Below are positions 17,578 through 50,780 of a DNA stretch of 64,000 nucleotides, piece after piece. The notes beneath the pieces were generated by a model that was not told the DNA's origin, made no database searches, and saw nothing but the letters and a program-made list of their open reading frames with translations. Location: NCBI RefSeq assembly GCF_030013595.1, contig NZ_CP122768.1; one strand, 5' to 3'. Source of the stretch: Escherichia coli. GTDB taxonomy: Bacteria > Pseudomonadota > Gammaproteobacteria > Enterobacterales > Enterobacteriaceae. The position numbers were made by a program, and so were the translations under genes. How positions within the stretch are numbered: the stretch's first letter is position 1; every line of letters begins with the position of its first letter.

Positions 17578-18342
17578 ATGAATAACTCCCCCCGCTACCC
17601 GCAGCGCGTTCGCAATGATCTGCGCTTCCGTGAATTGACTGTGCTACGCGCTGAGCGTATTAGCGCCGGTTTTCAGCGCATTGTCCTTGGCGGCGAGGCG
17701 CTGGACGGTTTTACATCGCGCGGCTTTGACGATCACAGCAAACTCTTCTTTCCTCAATCTGATGCTCACTTTGTGCCGCCAACGGTAACGGAAGAGGGCA
17801 TCGTCTGGCCGGAAGGACCACGCCCACCGTCGCGTGACTATACGCCGCTGTATGACGAACTACGCCATGAACTGGCGATTGATTTCTTTATTCACGACGG
17901 TGGCGTCGCCAGCGGCTGGGCGATGCAGGCGCAACCGGGCGATAAACTCACGGTGGCAGGTCCGCGCGGTTCGCTGGTGGTGCCAGAGGATTACGCGTAT
18001 CAGCTGTATGTCTGCGATGAATCCGGAATGCCCGCACTGCGCCGCCGCCTGGAAACGTTGAGCAAACTTGCCGTTAAACCGCAAGTTAGCGCGCTGGTTA
18101 GCGTGCGGGATAACGCCTGTCAGGATTATCTCGCGCACCTTGATGGTTTTAATATCGAATGGCTGGCACATGATGAGCAGGCAGTAGATGCGCGTCTGGC
18201 GCAGATGCAAATCCCTGCCGATGATTACTTCATCTGGATAACCGGCGAAGGCAAAGTCGTTAAGAATTTAAGCCGCCGCTTTGAAGCGGAACAGTATGAT
18301 CCACAGCGGGTACGTGCAGCGGCTTACTGGCACGCAAAGTAA
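17578..18342 (+). CDS. yqjH: Siderophore-interacting ferric reductase YqjH/NfeF (254 aa)
   Basis: Full ORF MNNSPRYPQRVRNDLRFRELTVLRAERISAGF...; FAD-binding siderophore-interacting protein family. Confidence 0.85.
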   Translation: MNNSPRYPQRVRNDLRFRELTVLRAERISAGFQRIVLGGEALDGFTSRGFDDHSKLFFPQSDAHFVPPTVTEEGIVWPEGPRPPSRDYTPLYDELRHELAIDFFIHDGGVASGWAMQAQPGDKLTVAGPRGSLVVPEDYAYQLYVCDESGMPALRRRLETLSKLAVKPQVSALVSVRDNACQDYLAHLDGFNIEWLAHDEQAVDARLAQMQIPADDYFIWITGEGKVVKNLSRRFEAEQYDPQRVRAAAYWHAK

Positions 18343-18355
18343 CTGATATATAAAA

Positions 18356-18390
18356 AGAAAAAGGCTGACGATTTCTCGTCAGCCTTTGCT
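18356..18390 (+). terminator. Rho-independent terminator of yqjH
   Basis: aggctgacga-tttc-tcgtcagcct hairpin followed by T-rich tract immediately after the yqjH stop. Confidence 0.6.
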
Positions 18391-18825
18391 ATGTCTGGCC
18401 CTGCTGTCTCTTAATTGGTTGTGTAATTAATTGAAATTAAACAGGTAAATGCAATTTATTTTTTATCGATATGCCTTTTTGTATGCCTATTGGGAAAAAC
18501 ACGCTTTCTTCAACAGGGAATAAAAGCCGCTTTTATGGTGTTTTGAAACGGGTTTTAAAATGGCGCTCGTGGTGCTCTCGGGCACTCAATGGCGCTCTGT
18601 GATGTGGCTGGTGGTATGTGGCCGCCATGCATAATGGGGCTGATTTTGTTCATGGCCCGGCAGCGGGTGAGCATTTTTTACCATATTCAGGGTAAAAATG
18701 GGCGAAAAAGTTCATTTCTGGCATGGCCTGAAATGCCACGCAGCCCGCGCCGCGTGTGCTCTTGCCGGGGAAAACGGCGCGGAATAATGACCGCCACCCC
18801 ACCTTATGGCGGGCAGTCCCACGAA

Positions 18826-18905
18826 ATCCCGGTTATTTCCGTTTATTCCCGGATTAATCCCGCCTTCTCCCGCATTCTCCCGGCTGTTCCCGGAATTAAT
18901 CGCCG
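18826..18905. repeat. Iteron-like array of ~7 units (TCCCGG/TCCCGC, 10-11 bp period)
   Basis: aaatcccggttatttccgtttattcccggattaatcccgccttctcccgcattctcccggctgttcccggaattaat. Confidence 0.4.
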
Positions 18906-18916
18906 TGGGGTGGTGG

Positions 18917-19207
18917 TTATCTGGTGTGGTCGTAGTTCTGCCGTAGTCGTTCACCCTCAGCGCAATGACGCGGTTTTTTAACGCCGCTGGTAACGCAACG
19001 CGGGCAGGTCATGACGTGGCTGATATACGCATCACGGGCAGCCAGCCACGTCGCTGACGGGGCGCACATATCCGCCAGCGCCTGGCCGTTGCTGGTGGTG
19101 TTGTCTTCCGGCCATGTTTCGGGCTGGTGCGCTTCCGGTAAATCCGGTGCAGGTAATGCCCGGATAAACTCACACAATGCATCCGGCAGGCTGAATAACT
19201 TATGCAT
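18917..19207 (-). pseudogene. Probable remnant of a rep/helicase-like gene (96-aa ORF)
   Basis: Shares a ~40-nt segment (acatatccgccagcgYctggccgttgctg) and peptide motif SNGQ(A/T)LADM with the intact helicase gene at 20446-20490; no RBS. Confidence 0.3.
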
Positions 19208-19629
19208 AAATCTGATGTTCTGAATCGCTGAAAACGTGCGTTTTATGGCGTTTTTTCGTGATTTCTGCGTGTTCTGATGTGCTCATTTCGCTGTATCCCT
19301 TGTGTGGCGCGGGCTGCGCGTGTGTTTCGGTGTTCTTTTTTACCGCCAGAAAACGGTAATCAGGCATATAAACACGGCTGTAAGCCGCGCCGCGTCTGGC
19401 TTCGCGTGATTTTGTGCGTCAAAAAGTGCATTTTTGCCCTTAAAAAGCGTTATTCGTAATTCACTGGTAAATGCTCCGCAGGCCGCGCCATTGCTGGCCT
19501 TTTCGCTATTCTGTGTGGTTTTGCTGTTTAACCCGTTTTGCACACTAAAATTGCCTTGCATCCCGCGCCACGTAAGGGATTGCCGGGTTTTTATGTTGCG
19601 TTTTTTGCCGTGCGTAATATTGTGCAAGT

Positions 19630-19875
19630 TGGTGGGACTGGTGGGAACTGTGGGAACCGCCTAGAACCACGCGGCTTTCAGTGGTTCCCACCAGTTCCCA
19701 CGTTGGCTTTTTGTGGGAACCGTGGCGGTTATTTTTTGTTCTTTGCGGTTCCCACCAGTTCCCGCAGAGTTCCCACTCAAAAACGAACAATAATCATACT
19801 GATGGTTTTATTATTTACTGATTTATATATGTTTTATTTTTACGGTTCCCACAGTTCCCACCAGTCCCACCACTT
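19630..19875. repeat. Putative origin of replication: at least 11 GTTCCCAC/GTGGGAAC octamer iterons in both orientations flanking an AT-rich stretch
   Basis: Octamers at 19631, 19640, 19649, 19683, 19693, 19712, 19747, 19757, 19768, 19844, 19853; AT-rich tract 19776-19840; immediately downstream of the helicase gene. Confidence 0.6.
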
Positions 19876-19906
19876 TTTCAGTTTTTAAAAACGCAATTTT
19901 TGTGAA

Positions 19907-21745
19907 TTATTCATCAATTGCGAATAACAATGCATTCTGGCCGATGGCGTAAACGCGGTGTTTCTCCCCGTTAACGGAAACGCGTTTTGTGTATCGGCGT
20001 TTCCCGTCCGTGTCGCGGTCAACAATCGCGCCAGCATCGTCAAGACTGGCCGCTATGCGTTTCAGGTCGTAGCCGCTGGCCGCCTCACATAGTGCTTCCG
20101 GTAAAAACCAGTAAACCCGCTCGCCGTTGCTCCCCGGTCGCCACCATCCGGCGCGGGTGCTTACTGGTTCGCTGTATGTGCTGCCCCCTTCAAAGCGTGA
20201 AGCATGGCGGGCGATAAACCCCGCGACGGCCCGGAGTATTTTCACGTCCTCCGATTGCCCCCGCCCACGATAGTCCGCCCACGCATCAAACATCGCTTTC
20301 ACTGCCTCCAGTGCTTCGCCCTGTTTCCACGGCAGAATCCCGGCAGTTATCGCCATTTCCCCGGCCAGTGCGCACAGTGTGAAACGCGCGGCGGCGCGTG
20401 CCTCCTGTCCGGTGCTTACGGGGAATTGTTCGCGCAGTATGGCGTACATATCCGCCAGCGTCTGGCCGTTGCTGTCGGTGCTGGTGGTGTCACTTTCATT
20501 GCGGGAAATCAGCCAGCGCACAAACTCCGGCCCGGCGTGGCCGTAATGGGTAGCCGCATTACCGCGCAGTGTTTCGGCAAATTTCCGGCCTGCTCCCCGG
20601 CGTTCTGTGTCGTTGTCGGGGTTGTGGGGTAGTGCCATTCCGTGAAGACAGTCAAATGCCCCGTAAAGCCGCTGTGCCGGAATATCCAGTAACCGCATTT
20701 CCTGCCCGGCCTTGATGCGCTGGCCGCCGCTTTCCATGTGTTTACCCACGGTCATTTCCCCGGTGGAAATAATCATGGTGCGCCATGTGTTGACCGGGCG
20801 GGCCATGCCGGACACCTTGCCACGCTGACGGCCTGTTCCGTTGCCAAGCTGATAAATCAGCCCGCCAATATCTCTGGCCGGGGCTTCGCCAATTTCATCC
20901 AGTATCAGCGCGGTATCGTTCCGCATGGTTGCCAGCCCTTCAAGCCCGGTGCTGGTGGCGTTCCAGTTGCGTTTAAAGTTGCGGGGTTCTCCCCATACGC
21001 TACAGGCCACCAGCGCCCCCACGCTTTTCCCGCTGGAACTGTCGCCCATGAAATGAAATCCGCCGCTGTCCACATCAAGCAACCACAGCAACGGCCCGGC
21101 GAGCGATGCACACACGGCCAGCATGGTTACCGGGTTTCCCCGGCATAATGCGGCCACGTTGTCGCGCCAGCCCTCCGGCGTTCCTGCGGTGGCGTACTCC
21201 TGTGAGCCTGCTTCTGTTGACTGAAACACCACATCACCATCACCGATAACCCCGCCCGGCATGACAAACAGGGCCGGGGAGTGCCACCCGGTGGCCGTGG
21301 CCGCGAGCGCCCGGCGTTTTGGTGCTGACTCCATGATGTATTCAGTCAGTGCCTGCCGTTGTTTGTAGGGAATGGTAACGCCCATGCGTAGCAGTTCCTG
21401 CCGGAGTTCTCCGCCGTCTCCGGCGAGCATTTCCATCGGTGCGGCCCATTCCCGCCACTGGCCTGACGGCGTGAGAAAACGGAGTAATCGCCCGTAGTTT
21501 TCGTCTTTGCTGTCGCTGGTCATGGCGATGACCTCCAGCGGGGAACATATAAACGTGTCTGTGTTGGTTGAGTCGCGCACGCCGTGCCAGTAAAGGCCGG
21601 GTTTCAGTATCTGGCCGCCGTCCACCTGTACATGCTGCGAATAAGTGGCGTAGCCCGGACGCGCCGGGCTGACTTTGGGGTGTTTCTTGCGTGGTGGTTT
21701 TCTCTTCCCGGATGTGACCGGGGTTTTAGTGGTTGTCCGGGTCAT
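19907..21745 (-). CDS. Replicative helicase, P4-alpha-like/SF3-type (612 aa)
   Basis: Walker A (GDSSSGKS) and Walker B (ALILDEIGE) motifs; overlaps primase stop by 20 nt; followed by iteron origin. Confidence 0.75.
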   Translation of the reverse strand: MTRTTTKTPVTSGKRKPPRKKHPKVSPARPGYATYSQHVQVDGGQILKPGLYWHGVRDSTNTDTFICSPLEVIAMTSDSKDENYGRLLRFLTPSGQWREWAAPMEMLAGDGGELRQELLRMGVTIPYKQRQALTEYIMESAPKRRALAATATGWHSPALFVMPGGVIGDGDVVFQSTEAGSQEYATAGTPEGWRDNVAALCRGNPVTMLAVCASLAGPLLWLLDVDSGGFHFMGDSSSGKSVGALVACSVWGEPRNFKRNWNATSTGLEGLATMRNDTALILDEIGEAPARDIGGLIYQLGNGTGRQRGKVSGMARPVNTWRTMIISTGEMTVGKHMESGGQRIKAGQEMRLLDIPAQRLYGAFDCLHGMALPHNPDNDTERRGAGRKFAETLRGNAATHYGHAGPEFVRWLISRNESDTTSTDSNGQTLADMYAILREQFPVSTGQEARAAARFTLCALAGEMAITAGILPWKQGEALEAVKAMFDAWADYRGRGQSEDVKILRAVAGFIARHASRFEGGSTYSEPVSTRAGWWRPGSNGERVYWFLPEALCEAASGYDLKRIAASLDDAGAIVDRDTDGKRRYTKRVSVNGEKHRVYAIGQNALLFAIDE

Positions 21746-23076: not shown

Positions 23077-23365
23077 GGCTTACCTCCCCGGCCTGCTGGT
23101 CGTAACACTCCATCAGTTCGGCCATACAGCCAATGAGGGCAGGGGCTGTCTGTAGAAATCCGGCTAACTGGCAGATCTCGTCTCTGGAATAGGTGATGGG
23201 GTTTTCGCGTAACTGGCTTTCCTCCAGTGCCTTACCAACAAAGGCAATCCCCGCAAGTAAATTCACTCTGTGCCAGTCTGCATCAACGCGCAGACTCCAG
23301 CGGCTTTCTTCGTCCGGCATACTGCTCATGGCGGCTTTCATTGACTCACGCAGACAATCACGCAT
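23069..23365 (-). CDS. Hypothetical small protein (98 aa, start at internal Met MRDCLRES)
   Basis: ORF linked to neighbours by the same CATGCGTGA stop/start overlap; longest ORF extends to 23446. Confidence 0.45.
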   Translation of the reverse strand: MRDCLRESMKAAMSSMPDEESRWSLRVDADWHRVNLLAGIAFVGKALEESQLRENPITYSRDEICQLAGFLQTAPALIGCMAELMECYDQQAGEVSHA

Positions 23366-23555
23366 GACGCACCCCCTGAGCCGGAACGCGGCCAGCAAAC
23401 AGCAACACAAAATCACGCGCCAGCATACGGCGGGCGGTTGTTTCATCGGGTGCGTTGACGGATTCGCGGTGTGGGCGGTCGTTCAGGTCGGAACGGCGAA
23501 CAGCCAGAAAGTGAAAGGTAAATTCAGGGTGTAACGGGGTTGGGGTCGTAGCCAT
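23358..23555 (-). CDS. Hypothetical small protein (65 aa)
   Basis: Strong Shine-Dalgarno AAGGAGG 8 nt upstream of ATG at 23555; the longer 201-aa ORF has junk-like composition upstream of this Met. Confidence 0.5.
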   Translation of the reverse strand: MATTPTPLHPEFTFHFLAVRRSDLNDRPHRESVNAPDETTARRMLARDFVLLFAGRVPAQGVRHA

Positions 23556-23582
23556 TCTGGCAGCCTCCTTTTGCAAATTTAA

Positions 23583-23621
23583 GGAGTCACCGCCTGAGTT
23601 CCTACACTCATAAGGGGCGGT
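23583..23621. promoter_or_regulatory. Inverted repeat GTCACCGCC-N21-GGCGGTGAC upstream of the small-gene operon (candidate operator or 5' hairpin)
   Basis: Perfect 9-bp inverted repeat 26-70 nt upstream of the 23555 start codon. Confidence 0.3.
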
Positions 23622-23744
23622 GACGCTGGCAGGGGTAGGAATACCGGCGCAAAAGGAAACCGGCCAGCCTTTCGGCTGCCCCACCAGCGCCACCATAGAT
23701 ACAGTGCGGGTCTTGCCGCTGTGCATGGGTGCGCGATGGCACGA

Positions 23745-23775
23745 CACAAAAAAAGACGCTGGGCGCGTCTGTGTC
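23745..23775 (-). terminator. Rho-independent terminator downstream of alpA
   Basis: Minus-strand agacgcgcccagcgtct hairpin followed by TTTTTTT. Confidence 0.45.
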
Positions 23776-23981
23776 GCCTTTTGCTCATTAAACGGGTTCC
23801 TACGCCCGGCTGGTGGATTTACACCAGCGGGGGAAATATAACGCCCACCAGCGATGGCAGGCAAGCAATATTTGCGGTTGCCGCCCATCCCGTGGGGCGT
23901 GTGGTGGTTGTTTTGGGCGTGAGAACGCCCCGGCCCTGTTACGGGCCTTTCTGGCATTTTCATAATGATTATCGCGGTTGG

Positions 23982-46968: not shown

Positions 46969-47385
46969 CCGGAAAGCGTTTCACAGATCTCGCTTCGTAC
47001 CTGGCAGGCCTATTGACGCTGTTGTTTTTTCAACCTAGAGTAAAGGAACAAGGGTAAGGGAGGATTTCTCCCCCCTCTGATGAGTTGTTAGTAAGTCGGG
47101 AAACTTAACAGTAACAACACAACCAGTATGATGACGAACTTCATCATAACCCTTTCCTTCTGTAAGGCCCCTTCTTCGGGAGGGGCTTTCCCGTTTCAGC
47201 CCCTTGCTGACTTCCCGATTGTTGATGAACGCCGGACCCCGCGCAATGCTTACCCAGAGGCAGTTTTGCCTTCCCCGAGCGGTCACGCAAAATGCTGCAA
47301 CAGCCCGATCATTTGCACTTTTTATCGGAACGCAGATATAAAGAATCCCCGGCTTTTTGGGCCAGGGATGTTCATAGTTGAAAAT

Positions 47386-50506: not shown

Positions 50507-50629
50507 TGTAGTTTCCCTGTACTGATAGGTGTTGAGTGCCATTGTAGTGCGATAAGGGTAAGTCATAAACCAGAATTATGTGAAGCTATGCGTTGCTGCC
50601 GCTAATCATTAGCGTTATAGTGAATCCGC

Positions 50630-50780
50630 TTATTCTCAGGGCGGGGCGAAATTCCCCACCGGCGGTAAATCAACTCAGTTGAAAGCCCGCGAGCGCTTTG
50701 GGTGCGAACTCAAAGGACAGCAGATCCGGTGTAATTCCGGGGCCGACGGTTAGAGTCCGGATGGGAGAGAGTAACGATTC
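50630..50780 (+). ncRNA. FMN riboswitch (RFN element) in the ribB leader
   Basis: Conserved RFN segments AGGGCGGGGCGAAATTCCCCACCGGCGGTAAA ... GGTGTAATTCCGGGGCCGACGGTTAGAGTCCGGATGGGAGAGAGTAACG upstream of ribB. Confidence 0.75.

Follow-up and report, generated by a model that had tools for sequence, protein, structure and literature searches.

A probable P4-type antisense-RNA immunity region between alpA and the replication operon of an Escherichia coli ileX island

The 426-bp gap between alpA and a small-gene cassette in E. coli is very probably a P4-type antisense-RNA immunity (lysogeny-maintenance) region that forms a self-contained minus-strand switch. The gap lies within a stretch of 64,000 nucleotides, referred to here as the window, on an island at the ileX tRNA. 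This island is a P4-family element, a relative or a reduced island rather than full P4. The immunity module is an ordinary intact copy of a system that is already known, and it opens no new question. Its parts, namely a promoter, an isrK-like RNA, a C4 RNA, target boxes and an inverted repeat, are all on the minus strand, and their presence, order, complementarity, covariation and conservation were established directly. Relatives comprised 100 unique IMG/VR loci for box counts and an 83-sequence alignment for covariation.

Results

P4-type genes flank and overlap the gap

The following frames surround or overlap the module:

23982..24236, minus strand: alpA/vis-like excisionase-regulator gene, 84 aa, directly upstream of the module
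23358..23963, minus strand: Eta-like frame, 201 aa, spanning the whole "intergenic" region; the 65-aa gene is nested within it, in phase, at the 3' end
23358..23555, minus strand: Icd/Kil-like gene, 65 aa, first gene of the putatively repressed operon

The alpA-like product matched P4 ORF88/Vis (41% identity over 64 aa, E 2e-14) and PHROG 66, "excisionase and transcriptional regulator"; its Pfam Phage_AlpA score of 18.6 bits is under the cut-off of 21. The 65-aa product, named "host cell division inhibitor Icd-like protein" in RefSeq, matched NCBIfam NF033153 phage_ICD_like at 73.2 bits (cut-off 25). The strong RBS attributed to its gene in the preliminary description is present as AAGGAGG at 23570-23564, with the ATG at 23555 following 8 nt later. 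Past this gene the operon continues through overlapping ORFs, a Toprim primase and a DUF927 helicase (Toprim_3 and DUF927 matches) down to 19907, with successive genes overlapping by 8-20 nt. The module is therefore situated as in P4-type regions, between a vis/alpA homologue and a replication (primase) operon on the same strand, and the window and P4 have in common the synteny of vis/alpA, eta(kil), small ORFs and primase.

The gap had been described as intergenic. No gene is annotated in most RefSeq copies of it, some of which carry an "ash family protein" (pseudogene), but the 201-aa frame runs throughout. E. coli cq9, U90 and UMNF18 are examples of strains with copies at 99-100% identity. 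The ATG of this frame lies 18 nt past the alpA stop, without a Shine-Dalgarno sequence. The product matched Pfam Phage_ASH over residues 42-148 (92 bits), NCBIfam phage_ICD_like over residues 148-194, and PHROG 6928 (173 bits). In 80% of 90 related loci the same frame stayed open over 100 or more upstream codons, which the other two frames did in 1% and 4%. As in P4, a long (eta) and a short (kil) frame are nested across the RNA genes.

The full-length Phage_ASH match, the PHROG 6928 match, the frequency of the open frame and the "ash family protein" of some RefSeq genomes, whose Eta/Ash family is elsewhere annotated "transcriptional repressor", would all fit a region that simply encodes a 201-aa Eta/Ash-family protein and has RNA-like features by accident. 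We find this barely credible, since the RNA helices and antisense-target pairs described below covary in ways that coding does not require. In addition, P1-, N15- and lambdoid-type loci retain the RNAs without the frame (phiKO2 has 4 open codons), and the frame is short in about 18% of loci. The Phage_ASH match runs exactly from +1 to the icd start, and the family is therefore a translation of the RNA module; in P4, eta translation itself overrides termination (PMC10111431). The protein and RNA readings coexist, and it is the protein-only version that is rejected.

A predicted promoter precedes an IsrK/seqA-like leader RNA and its terminator

The start of the module contains:

23835..23864, minus strand: predicted PLE-like sigma-70 promoter, with -35 TTGCCT at 23864-23859, an 18-nt spacer and -10 TATATT at 23840-23835
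23749..23828, minus strand: IsrK/seqA-like leader RNA, matching Rfam RF01394 isrK at 60.7 bits (gathering score 50, E 2.4e-11)
23747..23770, minus strand: intrinsic terminator, with stem AGACGC-GCCCA-GCGTCT at 23770-23754 and U7 at 23753-23747

A promoter scan gave a 9/12 match to the consensus, and the predicted +1 near G23828 coincides with position 1 of the isrK model. The end of the predicted -10 hexamer was 32-33 nt upstream of the target box a1 in 99/99 related loci. This fixed register supports the earlier suggestion that the region has a promoter of its own, as judged from sequence. A terminator-like hairpin at 23863-23842 falls in the promoter spacer.

The isrK match was full-length (model positions 1-77 of 77) and comprised two 5' hairpins and the intrinsic terminator. 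The leader RNA is composed of hairpin 1 (23828-23809), the a1 hairpin, a single-stranded b1 box and the terminator, and has a fold energy of -29.3 kcal/mol (z -2.6). An overlapping match to Rfam RF03163 c4-a1b1 at 23789-23841 scored 38.6 bits, under the gathering score of 46.7, as do the matches in P4 (44.1 bits) and APSE-7 (45.8 bits). Membership of c4-a1b1 was rejected on this score and the leader was assigned to isrK instead. The a1 and b1 boxes are present and complementary despite the sub-threshold score.

The minus-strand intrinsic terminator of the preliminary description was recovered both in the sequence and in a terminator scan, which returned 7 terminator-like sites where shuffled sequences would give 1.7. 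The 3' end of the isrK model falls on this terminator, and a T-run was found ~47 nt after a1 in 99/99 loci. We take the terminator at 23770-23747 to be the counterpart of P4 t1; of the P4 terminators t1, t4 and timm, the t1-like one is the only one visible in the window sequence.

A C4/CI-type RNA is complementary to target boxes on both of its sides

Downstream of the terminator lies a second RNA, with recognition sequences for boxes in the leader and near the 65-aa gene:

23613..23700, minus strand: C4/CI-type antisense RNA, matching Rfam RF01695 at 79.6 bits (gathering score 45, E 9e-15)
23649..23657, minus strand: b' recognition sequence UCCUUUUGC, loop of C4 hairpin 2
23635..23641, minus strand: a' recognition sequence UUCCUAC, single-stranded C4 junction
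23797..23803, minus strand: a1 target box GUAGGAA, in a hairpin loop, exact complement of C4 a'
23777..23784, minus strand: b1 target box GCAAAAGG, exact complement of the C4 b' loop
23605-23599, minus strand: a2 target, loop of the inverted-repeat hairpin, just downstream of C4
23574-23566, minus strand: b2 target box GCAAAAGGA, overlapping the Shine-Dalgarno sequence AAGGAGG (23570-23564) of the 65-aa gene

The C4 match was full-length (model positions 1-87 of 87) and exceeded that of P4 itself (74.9 bits). A 17-bp closing stem (23695-23679 with 23634-23618) encloses two hairpins, and the minimum free energy (MFE) fold is the Rfam consensus fold (-48.6 kcal/mol, z -4.3). Over 83 sequences this fold was 97.4% paired and its closing stem 100% paired. 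CI and C4 are RNase P substrates (PMC5499578), and the mature RNA is predicted to extend roughly from 23695 to 23616. An Rfam scan of the 64-kb window found no second C4 or isrK copy. A small RNA had been offered as one possibility for this region; two are encoded, one IsrK/seqA-like and one C4/CI-like, both above their Rfam gathering scores. The same tandem of isrK followed by C4 was found by Rfam in P4, D6, phiKO2 and APSE-7, and is annotated as such in APSE-7. At the DNA level the window is homologous to P4 in its cI region and to D6, phiKO2 and APSE in their immunity regions.

In the window, the pairings flanking C4 on both sides cover 7 nt for a and 8-9 nt for b. In P4, D6, phiKO2 and APSE-7, as in the window, a' and b' are complementary to boxes on either side of C4, with sequences that differ per locus. 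The a1 box was exact in 99/100 and a2 in 100/100 unique IMG/VR loci. About 35 b' alleles occur among 100 loci, and own-locus matches of at least 7 nt were found for b1 in 86% of loci (12.6% in a cross-locus control) and for b2 in 90% (7% in the control). Across the 83 related loci, b'-b2 was 94.5% paired with compensatory changes at 7/9 pairs, and a'-a2 was 100% paired with compensatory changes at 4/7. The covariation score of a'-a2 and b'-b2 together was 0.573, compared to 0.175 when shuffled, and 0/500 shuffles scored as high. Only two composite a..b sites are present in the 64 kb, both in the module leader, and no further C4 targets were found within the window. An anti-SD sequence, CUCCUU at 23586-23581, can pair with the b2/Shine-Dalgarno region (23564..23574), and an anti-SD/SD hairpin appears in MFE folds. 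A third contact, of a Shine-Dalgarno-proximal GGCUGCC with C4 hairpin 1 (10/10 nt in P4, 7 nt in the window), was dropped because D6 keeps GGCUGCC despite a changed hairpin arm, i.e. there is no covariation.

In the MFE fold of the full leader, a1 and b1 are paired in cis with a' and b', like "structure A" of the Salmonella isrK-orf45 transcript. Together with the isrK match above gathering score, this would also suit a Gifsy-1-type logic, in which the short terminated IsrK-like RNA is a trans activator that pairs with the C4 region of the long transcript or sponges free C4, opening the leader for downstream translation. The terminator would then set an on-switch and not only repressor autoregulation. 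Salmonella IsrK supplied in trans raised a downstream translation fusion >100-fold (PMC4825925). We consider such a logic unlikely here: the context is P4-like (alpA/vis, eta/kil nesting, primase operon) with no anrP/antQ antiterminator cassette, and P4 seqA is described as a target required for immunity (PMC3632133). The P4-type and Gifsy-1-type roles of the leader RNA are not mutually exclusive, and the sign of its own trans effect is uncertain because the homologous Gifsy-1 IsrK activates downstream translation (PMC4825925).

The inverted repeat is a conserved RNA helix

The repeat upstream of the 65-aa gene was mapped as follows:

23586..23624, minus strand: inverted repeat, RNA hairpin, with 5' arm GUCACCGCC at 23624-23616 and 3' arm GGCGGUGAC at 23594-23586

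As read on the given strand, the arms are GTCACCGCC (23586-23594) and GGCGGTGAC (23616-23624). The repeat had been reported as perfect over 9 bp with 21-nt spacing, which is right, at coordinates 23583-23621, which are off by 3 nt. By itself a perfect 9-bp repeat is not significant, occurring in 7.4% of 2000 dinucleotide shuffles of 23556-23981. We accept it as real because it is conserved and covarying, and not by its own significance. An equivalent helix was found in 100/100 unique related loci. In the 83-sequence alignment it was 98.5% paired with compensatory changes at 4/9 pairs, and all departures from Watson-Crick pairing in the inner 7 pairs were G.U. The 5' arm consists of the final 7 nt on the 3' side of the C4 closing stem and 2 tail nt, and an upper stem, GAGU/ACUC, presents a2 in the loop. 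The hairpin has a fold energy of -23.1 kcal/mol (z -3.8).

The preliminary description had suggested that the repeat is a promoter/operator element, possibly a DNA site for AlpA or a helper-phage protein gating an independent promoter of the replication cassette. Ahead of the first gene, a palindrome perfect over 9 bp and spaced by 21 bp has the appearance of such a site, and AlpA/Vis-type proteins are DNA-binding regulators. We nevertheless regard this as highly improbable. The repeat lies ~200 nt downstream of the conserved promoter, downstream of the RNAs and within the transcript; one of its arms belongs to C4 RNA, as the 3' strand of the closing stem; and on its own it is within chance expectation. 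In related loci, 35 G.U cells would be A.C mismatches on the other strand, leaving an imperfect DNA palindrome, and the most frequent variant, GTCACCACC/GGTGGTGGC, is itself imperfect as a DNA palindrome. Compensatory substitutions are also seen in the arms, and like the G.U wobbles they are sensible only in minus-strand RNA. The operator reading was therefore rejected on the strand-specific G.U variation and the C4 overlap, and the repeat is a conserved covarying RNA helix, not a DNA operator.

The helix and the lowest 7 bp of the C4 closing stem compete with each other, which is possibly the only undescribed detail of the module. The C4 closing-stem 3' strand with its CC tail would pair either with the C4 5' strand, giving an RNase P-competent C4, or with the downstream arm, giving the hairpin that presents a2. 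Changes in the shared strand are followed by Watson-Crick compensation in the downstream arm and absorbed by G.U wobble in the C4 5' strand. In most P4-type loci the downstream arm can pair with the segment just before b2, and the alternatives would therefore form a 1:2 / 2:3 / 3:4 attenuator-like chain. On this basis we propose, tentatively and with some doubt, that the repeat marks a conserved RNA conformational switch outside all Rfam models. If so, the choice between C4 maturation and termination could lie with the helix, which could also underlie P4 terminator t4 physically and could account for the PNPase need in CI 3' maturation. P4 t4 is reportedly an atypical factor-independent terminator, and CI 3' maturation is reported to need PNPase (attributed to Briani et al., 2000, and Piazza et al., 1996).

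Discussion

The account that follows of RNA processing, termination, blocked translation and escape is proposed by homology, with mechanistic content carried over from P4, P1, N15 and Gifsy-1. A constitutive PLE-like promoter with +1 near 23828 would produce a transcript with a leader of 276 nt. The first ~80 nt would give the IsrK/seqA-like RNA, which shows a1 in a hairpin loop and b1 and would end at the terminator at 23770-23747. Transcripts that read through would contain the C4/CI RNA, probably matured by an RNase P cut at the 5' end and 3' trimming to a stable RNA of about 77-80 nt. The a' junction and b' loop of hairpin 2 would then pair with a1/b1 of nascent leaders. In P4, C4-type pairing with a1/b1 raises termination at the first terminator, resulting in autoregulation of C4. 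The C4 RNA would also pair with a2/b2 directly downstream of C4, a2 being held in a hairpin loop within the leader by the inverted-repeat helix. Since b2 overlaps the Shine-Dalgarno sequence of the Icd/Kil-like gene, this pairing would block translation, and the block would lead to premature transcription termination, turning the primase/helicase operon off. Control of the downstream replication cassette, as first suggested, is likewise supported by homology with P4, where CI pairs with seqA and seqC to cause transcription termination (PMC4825925).

Escape would be expected when transcription starts upstream of alpA. The Eta-like frame would then be translated through the leader, and ribosomes would override RNA-dependent termination. 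The eta/kil model, the alpA coupling, the overriding of termination by eta translation in P4, and C4/isrK matches in Gram-negative PICIs have been described (PMC10111431). The preliminary description had set read-through from alpA against an own promoter, as an outcome that would refute its reading. This choice was mis-set because P4 does both: its constitutive internal promoter fires, and read-through comes from a promoter upstream of the alpA/vis homologue (PMC10111431).

The P4 immunity region is laid out as PLE - seqA - t1 - cI/CI RNA - seqC - kil nested in eta - ... - alpha. The window resembles it in DNA homology (to P4 8353-8676), in isrK followed by C4 with vis/alpA upstream and the primase operon downstream, in the nested frames (eta 214 aa in P4 and 201 aa in the window, kil/icd 65 aa in both), in a/b boxes that flank the RNA on both sides with b2 at the Shine-Dalgarno sequence, and in the inverted-repeat helix, present in P4 as GCUAUCGCC/GGCGAUAGC. 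In contrast, the recognition sequences differ (a is GUAGGAA and b is GCAAAAGG in the window, GUGAGAA and UUCACAGG in P4), and a different immunity specificity is therefore expected. The terminator-C4 linker is shorter in the window, with 134 nt from a1 to the C4 core compared to 191 nt in P4, and an anti-SD/SD hairpin stands in place of the P4-type small hairpin before b2. A complete P4-like satellite comprises int, alpA, alpha, eps, sid, delta, psu and cos. Among the island ORFs (18.4-26.7 kb), searches of Pfam, NCBIfam and PHROGs gave no matches to P4 sid, delta or psu (capsid-size/late-control), and the island replicase is a split Toprim plus DUF927, not P4 alpha. The helper, inducing signal and escape route may differ from those of P4, because there are no recognisable P4 late genes and the replicase is different. 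A search for an att site at the left end of the island gave no direct repeat of the tRNA that reached 12 nt.

The P1/P7 immI operon (c4 antisense RNA - icd - ant) and the P1-like phage D6 also have a C4-family RNA. Its a'/b' sequences pair with one set of boxes on the upstream side (a1/b1) and another on the downstream side (a2/b2), and b2 again falls on the RBS of an Icd-family gene. Of the phages, D6 matched the window best at the DNA level (75.8% identity), and the b box GCAAAAGG and the anti-SD arrangement are common to both. Unlike in the window, the repressed cargo in P1/D6 is an antirepressor (ant) and not a replication operon, there is no Eta-like frame or alpA upstream, and the a box is UUGAGAC. 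The immA region of N15/phiKO2 (small processed RNA - icd - antA/B) has an isrK-like leader with a terminator and, after it, a C4-like RNA, with all matches exceeding the gathering scores, as well as the a box GUAGGAA of the window and the inverted-repeat helix. It differs in its b box, in the frame upstream of icd, which is closed (4 codons), and in its cargo of antirepressor genes.

The founding member of Rfam isrK is the Salmonella Gifsy-1 IsrK - orf45 (STnc1160) - anrP locus. There, one promoter gives a short terminated RNA and a read-through transcript from which the ~80-nt STnc1160 is processed, and the region downstream is base-paired in cis with the IsrK part (PMC4825925). Cis pairing of this kind agrees with the full-leader MFE fold of the window. 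The short RNA of Gifsy-1 is, however, reported as the activator of an antiterminator cascade (anrP, antQ) by which growth is arrested, whereas the window has a P4-type replication operon.

In the annotation, the 426-bp gap should gain two ncRNA features (IsrK/seqA-like and C4/CI-like), a promoter and a terminator. Specialist interest is limited to the covarying helix and its competition with the base of the C4 stem. For the biology of the element, these results suggest that an antisense RNA with a specificity of its own keeps the replication operon of the ileX island off. The a box is of the type known from phiKO2 and from many P4-like loci, the b box is of the D6 type, and this would allow a prediction of which related elements would be co-immune.

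An isrK-like leader and a C4 antisense RNA between alpA and icd

The preliminary description proposed a small RNA in the gap between alpA, an 84-aa vis/alpA-like gene, and icd, the 65-aa Icd/Kil-like gene. This proposal is upheld, as matches to isrK, the P4 seqA-like leader RNA model, and to C4, the antisense RNA family that includes P4 CI, exceed the Rfam gathering scores.

Features of the leader region (a1, b1, a2 and b2, target boxes; a' and b', complementary recognition sequences within C4)
23864-23859 and 23840-23835, minus strand: predicted promoter (promoter scan), -35 TTGCCT and -10 TATATT, 18-nt spacer
23789-23841, minus strand: c4-a1b1 (RF03163), Rfam, 38.6 bits, under the gathering score of 46.7
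23749-23828, minus strand: isrK (RF01394), Rfam, 60.7 bits, gathering score 50
23828-23809, minus strand: leader hairpin 1
23803-23797, minus strand: a1 box GUAGGAA, in the loop of the second leader hairpin
23784-23777, minus strand: b1 box GCAAAAGG, single-stranded, with the terminator next
23613-23700, minus strand: C4 antisense RNA (RF01695), Rfam, 79.6 bits, gathering score 45
23695-23679 with 23634-23618, minus strand: C4 closing stem, 17 bp, enclosing two hairpins
23657-23649, minus strand: b' box UCCUUUUGC, in the hairpin 2 loop of C4
23641-23635, minus strand: a' box UUCCUAC, at the C4 junction
23605-23599, minus strand: a2 box, 3' of C4
23574-23566, minus strand: b2 box GCAAAAGGA, 3' of C4, sharing bases with the Shine-Dalgarno sequence (SD)

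Transcription is expected to start near G23828, which is position 1 of the isrK model. On its 3' side the isrK match ends in the minus-strand terminator that had been noticed from the sequence; this was detected by the terminator scan and combines a 6-bp stem rich in G+C (AGACGC-GCCCA-GCGTCT, 23770-23754) with a run of seven T (23753-23747). The same scan revealed an over-representation of terminator-like sites in the region (7 found vs 1.7 expected). A 46-nt linker precedes C4, which when folded alone adopted the Rfam consensus structure (-48.6 kcal/mol, z -4.3), and the 276-nt whole leader was far more stable than its shuffles (z -5.6). The strong ribosome-binding site assigned to icd was confirmed as AAGGAGG (23570-23564), 8 nt from the ATG at 23555. 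Composite a..b sites occurred only twice in the 64-kb window, both in this leader.

The minus strand carries three copies of the motif CGCTGGTG(GG), one within the promoter spacer (23853-23844), one at the leader 5' end (23829-23822) and one in the C4 5' strand (23689-23680), and the complement of CGCTGGTG lies at the alpA 3' end (23988-23996); the threefold pattern is absent from P4. The C4/isrK site (window 23580-23888, minus strand; locus L001, 6241-6549) has no ncRNA annotation in RefSeq, and in some RefSeq genomes an 'ash family protein' pseudogene is annotated across it. The whole-window Rfam scan also returned a SIB RNA (47013-47162, plus strand, 139 bits) and an FMN riboswitch (50628-50776, plus strand, 121 bits), both ordinary E. 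coli chromosomal features.

Pairing between the antisense RNA and its targets is conserved

IMG/VR was scanned with a C4 core pattern, which yielded 120 loci, 100 of them unique. Each of the 100 unique loci carried an exact complement of its own a' downstream, and 99 carried one upstream; for the b' loop, stretches of 7 nt or more complementary to the locus's own sequence were present upstream in 86% and downstream in 90%. In the control, in which b' was compared with the flanks of loci carrying other b' sequences, these values were 12.6% and 7%. About 35 alleles of b' were counted and only three of a', the latter being restricted by the search pattern itself; the b' loop of the window was found in no other locus of the IMG/VR sample. 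In A1, an alignment of 83 related loci on which the pairing and covariation figures are based, pairing of b' and b2 was 94.5% and 7 of the 9 positions showed compensatory changes; for a' and a2 it was 100%, and 4 of the 7 positions showed such changes. The covariation score was 0.573 vs 0.175 for shuffles, and none of 500 shuffles scored as high. The spacing was equally constant: the end of the -10 element lies 32-33 nt from a1, and a T-run lies ~47 nt past a1, each in 99/99 loci. The conserved pairing and register therefore indicate that the window copy is intact and canonical. The earlier proposal that the region has its own promoter likewise holds up at the sequence level, with a predicted -35/-10 pair and the -10 in fixed register in 99/99 loci.

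The inverted repeat is an RNA helix that shares an arm with C4

The perfect 9-bp inverted repeat with 21 nt between its arms is present as first described, at coordinates shifted by 3 nt; its true arms are 23586-23594 and 23616-23624. Judged alone, it is unremarkable, since perfect 9-bp repeats with loops of 3-40 nt were present in 7.4% of 2000 dinucleotide-preserving shuffles of 23556-23981. We accept it as real because of the comparison with relatives. An equivalent helix surrounds a2 in 100/100 unique loci and measures 8-11 bp in 98 of these. The arms are GUCACCGCC/GGCGGUGAC in the window, GCUAUCGCC/GGCGAUAGC in P4, and GCUACCACC/GGUGGUAGC and GUCACCACC/GGUGGUGGC in many other loci. In A1 the helix was 98.5% paired, with both-side changes in 4 of 9 pairs, and in the inner seven pairs every non-Watson-Crick cell was G.U. 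Such G.U-only variation is what an RNA helix on the minus strand should show, and would not be expected if the repeat were a DNA palindrome bound by protein. Together with the position of one arm within the C4 RNA, this led us to reject the initial reading of the repeat as an operator. The first description was confirmed as an observation and partly right as an interpretation.

The 5' arm consists of the seven nt that end the 3' strand of the C4 closing stem and of two nt of the tail, so that the helix cannot coexist with the bottom of the C4 stem. In the shared columns, changes were absorbed on the C4 5' strand by wobble (e.g. 13:86 GC to GU, 11:88 UA to UG), and on the downstream arm were met by Watson-Crick compensation (86:118 CG to UA and 88:115 AU to GC). 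The hairpin was stable alone (-23.1 kcal/mol, z -3.8), and the minimum free energy (MFE) structure of the full leader contained this a2 hairpin plus an anti-SD/SD hairpin (CUCCUU 23586-23581 with AAGGAG 23570-23565). The anti-SD that follows the 3' arm and pairs with the SD was seen in the window and in D6-type loci; in its place, most P4-type loci have a hairpin of 5-6 bp in which the last bases of the arm, GUAGC, pair with GCUAC just before b2 (A1 columns 113-146). These alternatives suggest a chain of mutually exclusive helices. Our conclusion is that the helix functions as an RNA element that at least holds a2 in a loop; it may additionally act as a switch or terminator. Briani et al. (2000) reportedly described an intrinsic P4 terminator, t1, that lies between PLE and cI, is enhanced by CI plus seqA and autoregulates CI, and also an atypical factor-independent terminator, t4, directly downstream of cI. 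We take the window terminator (23770-23747) to be the t1 counterpart and the inverted-repeat hairpin to be a t4 candidate.

A nested Eta-like frame overlies the RNAs

A 201-aa frame (23358-23963, minus strand) begins 18 nt past the alpA stop without a Shine-Dalgarno sequence, crosses the promoter, the two RNAs and the target boxes, and finishes as the Icd-like protein. Residues 42-148, which correspond exactly to the segment between +1 and the icd start, match Pfam Phage_ASH, residues 148-194 match the Icd-like model, and the frame also matches PHROG 6928 ('transcriptional repressor'). P4 likewise has a 214-aa frame with a nested 65-aa gene, and the window pair is the nested eta/kil (long/short) arrangement of this satellite phage. 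Of 90 related loci, 80% kept the frame open over 100 or more upstream codons, compared with 1% and 4% for the two alternative frames; loci without it include phage-type ones such as phiKO2. Such conservation could be read as a region that is protein-coding only. This reading is rejected, as the RNA constraints are independent of frame and both layers coexist. Phage_ASH and PHROG 6928 are in effect the RNA immunity region in translation, and go back to the former annotation of a P4 'cI protein'. Translation of the complete eta frame occurs only from the upstream late promoter and is coupled to the alpA homologue, and it keeps transcription from terminating (PMC10111431).

The island is a relative of P4

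In BLAST against phage records, the region aligned with the P4 cI region (NC_001609 8353-8676), with the icd-ant regions of the P1-like phage D6 and of phiKO2, and with APSE phages. Rfam detected an isrK-like element followed in tandem by C4 in all four, and the APSE-7 record carries both annotations in that order. D6 has a second C4-like match (L003 2128-2207, minus strand, 40.2 bits, under the gathering score) ~470 nt upstream of its main C4. The likeness to P4 extends to the genes: the upstream 84-aa gene is 41% identical to P4 Vis/ORF88, and the downstream 65-aa gene encodes an Icd-like protein (NCBIfam, 73 bits) and leads a run of overlapping genes that ends with a Toprim primase and a DUF927 helicase. 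In contrast to P4, the island has a different a/b specificity (its a box is of phiKO2 type and its b box of D6 type), a shorter linker from terminator to C4 and a D6-type anti-SD hairpin; it lacks sid/delta/psu-like genes, and its replicase is Toprim plus DUF927. It is therefore better described as a relative within the P4 family than as a full P4.

The island is bounded by the ileX tRNA (26713-26788; Met-CAT per ARAGORN, tRNA-Ile per RefSeq) and nfeF/yqjH, adjoined by mug-rpoD-dnaG. At the far end (18340-19950 vs 26713-26788), a search for direct repeats of the tRNA of 12 nt or more gave none, and ~1.5 kb there holds only one ORF, a 96-aa orphan. Between the integrase and alpA lies an orphan cargo ORF of 293-296 aa (24370-25260, minus strand) with no match in Pfam, NCBIfam or PHROGs; satellites often have accessory or defence genes at this position. 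Among 5426 E. coli complete genomes, only 17 contain the 901-bp alpA-icd stretch in identical or near-identical form, and all 15 listed carriers of these 17 came from livestock (11 pig or swine, 3 mutton, 1 water buffalo). Copies at 80-90% identity occur in 137 further E. coli complete genomes.

Proposed mechanism

All parts of the system are present, ordered, complementary and evolutionarily constrained. The mechanism is inferred from P4, P1 and N15 (PMC4825925, PMC3632133, PMC10111431, PMC5499578, PMC8546580). By this analogy, the leader promoter would be constitutive, and read-through transcripts would give rise to a stable C4 RNA with its 5' end cut by RNase P. C4 would base-pair with a1/b1 and a2/b2; pairing at b2 would hide the Shine-Dalgarno sequence of icd, and transcription would end ahead of the primase operon. 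Transcripts that start upstream of alpA would override this block when the Eta-like frame is translated. A Gifsy-1-type activating role of the short leader RNA (PMC4825925) is also conceivable and is compatible with the pairing of a1/b1 in cis with a'/b' in the MFE structure. Both Rfam models, isrK and C4, match several Gram-negative PICIs (PMC10111431), and the parts of the module have already been equated with each other in the literature. The antisense leader is an already known system, because existing Rfam models match it above threshold; the covarying helix in competition with the base of the C4 stem may be one undescribed detail.
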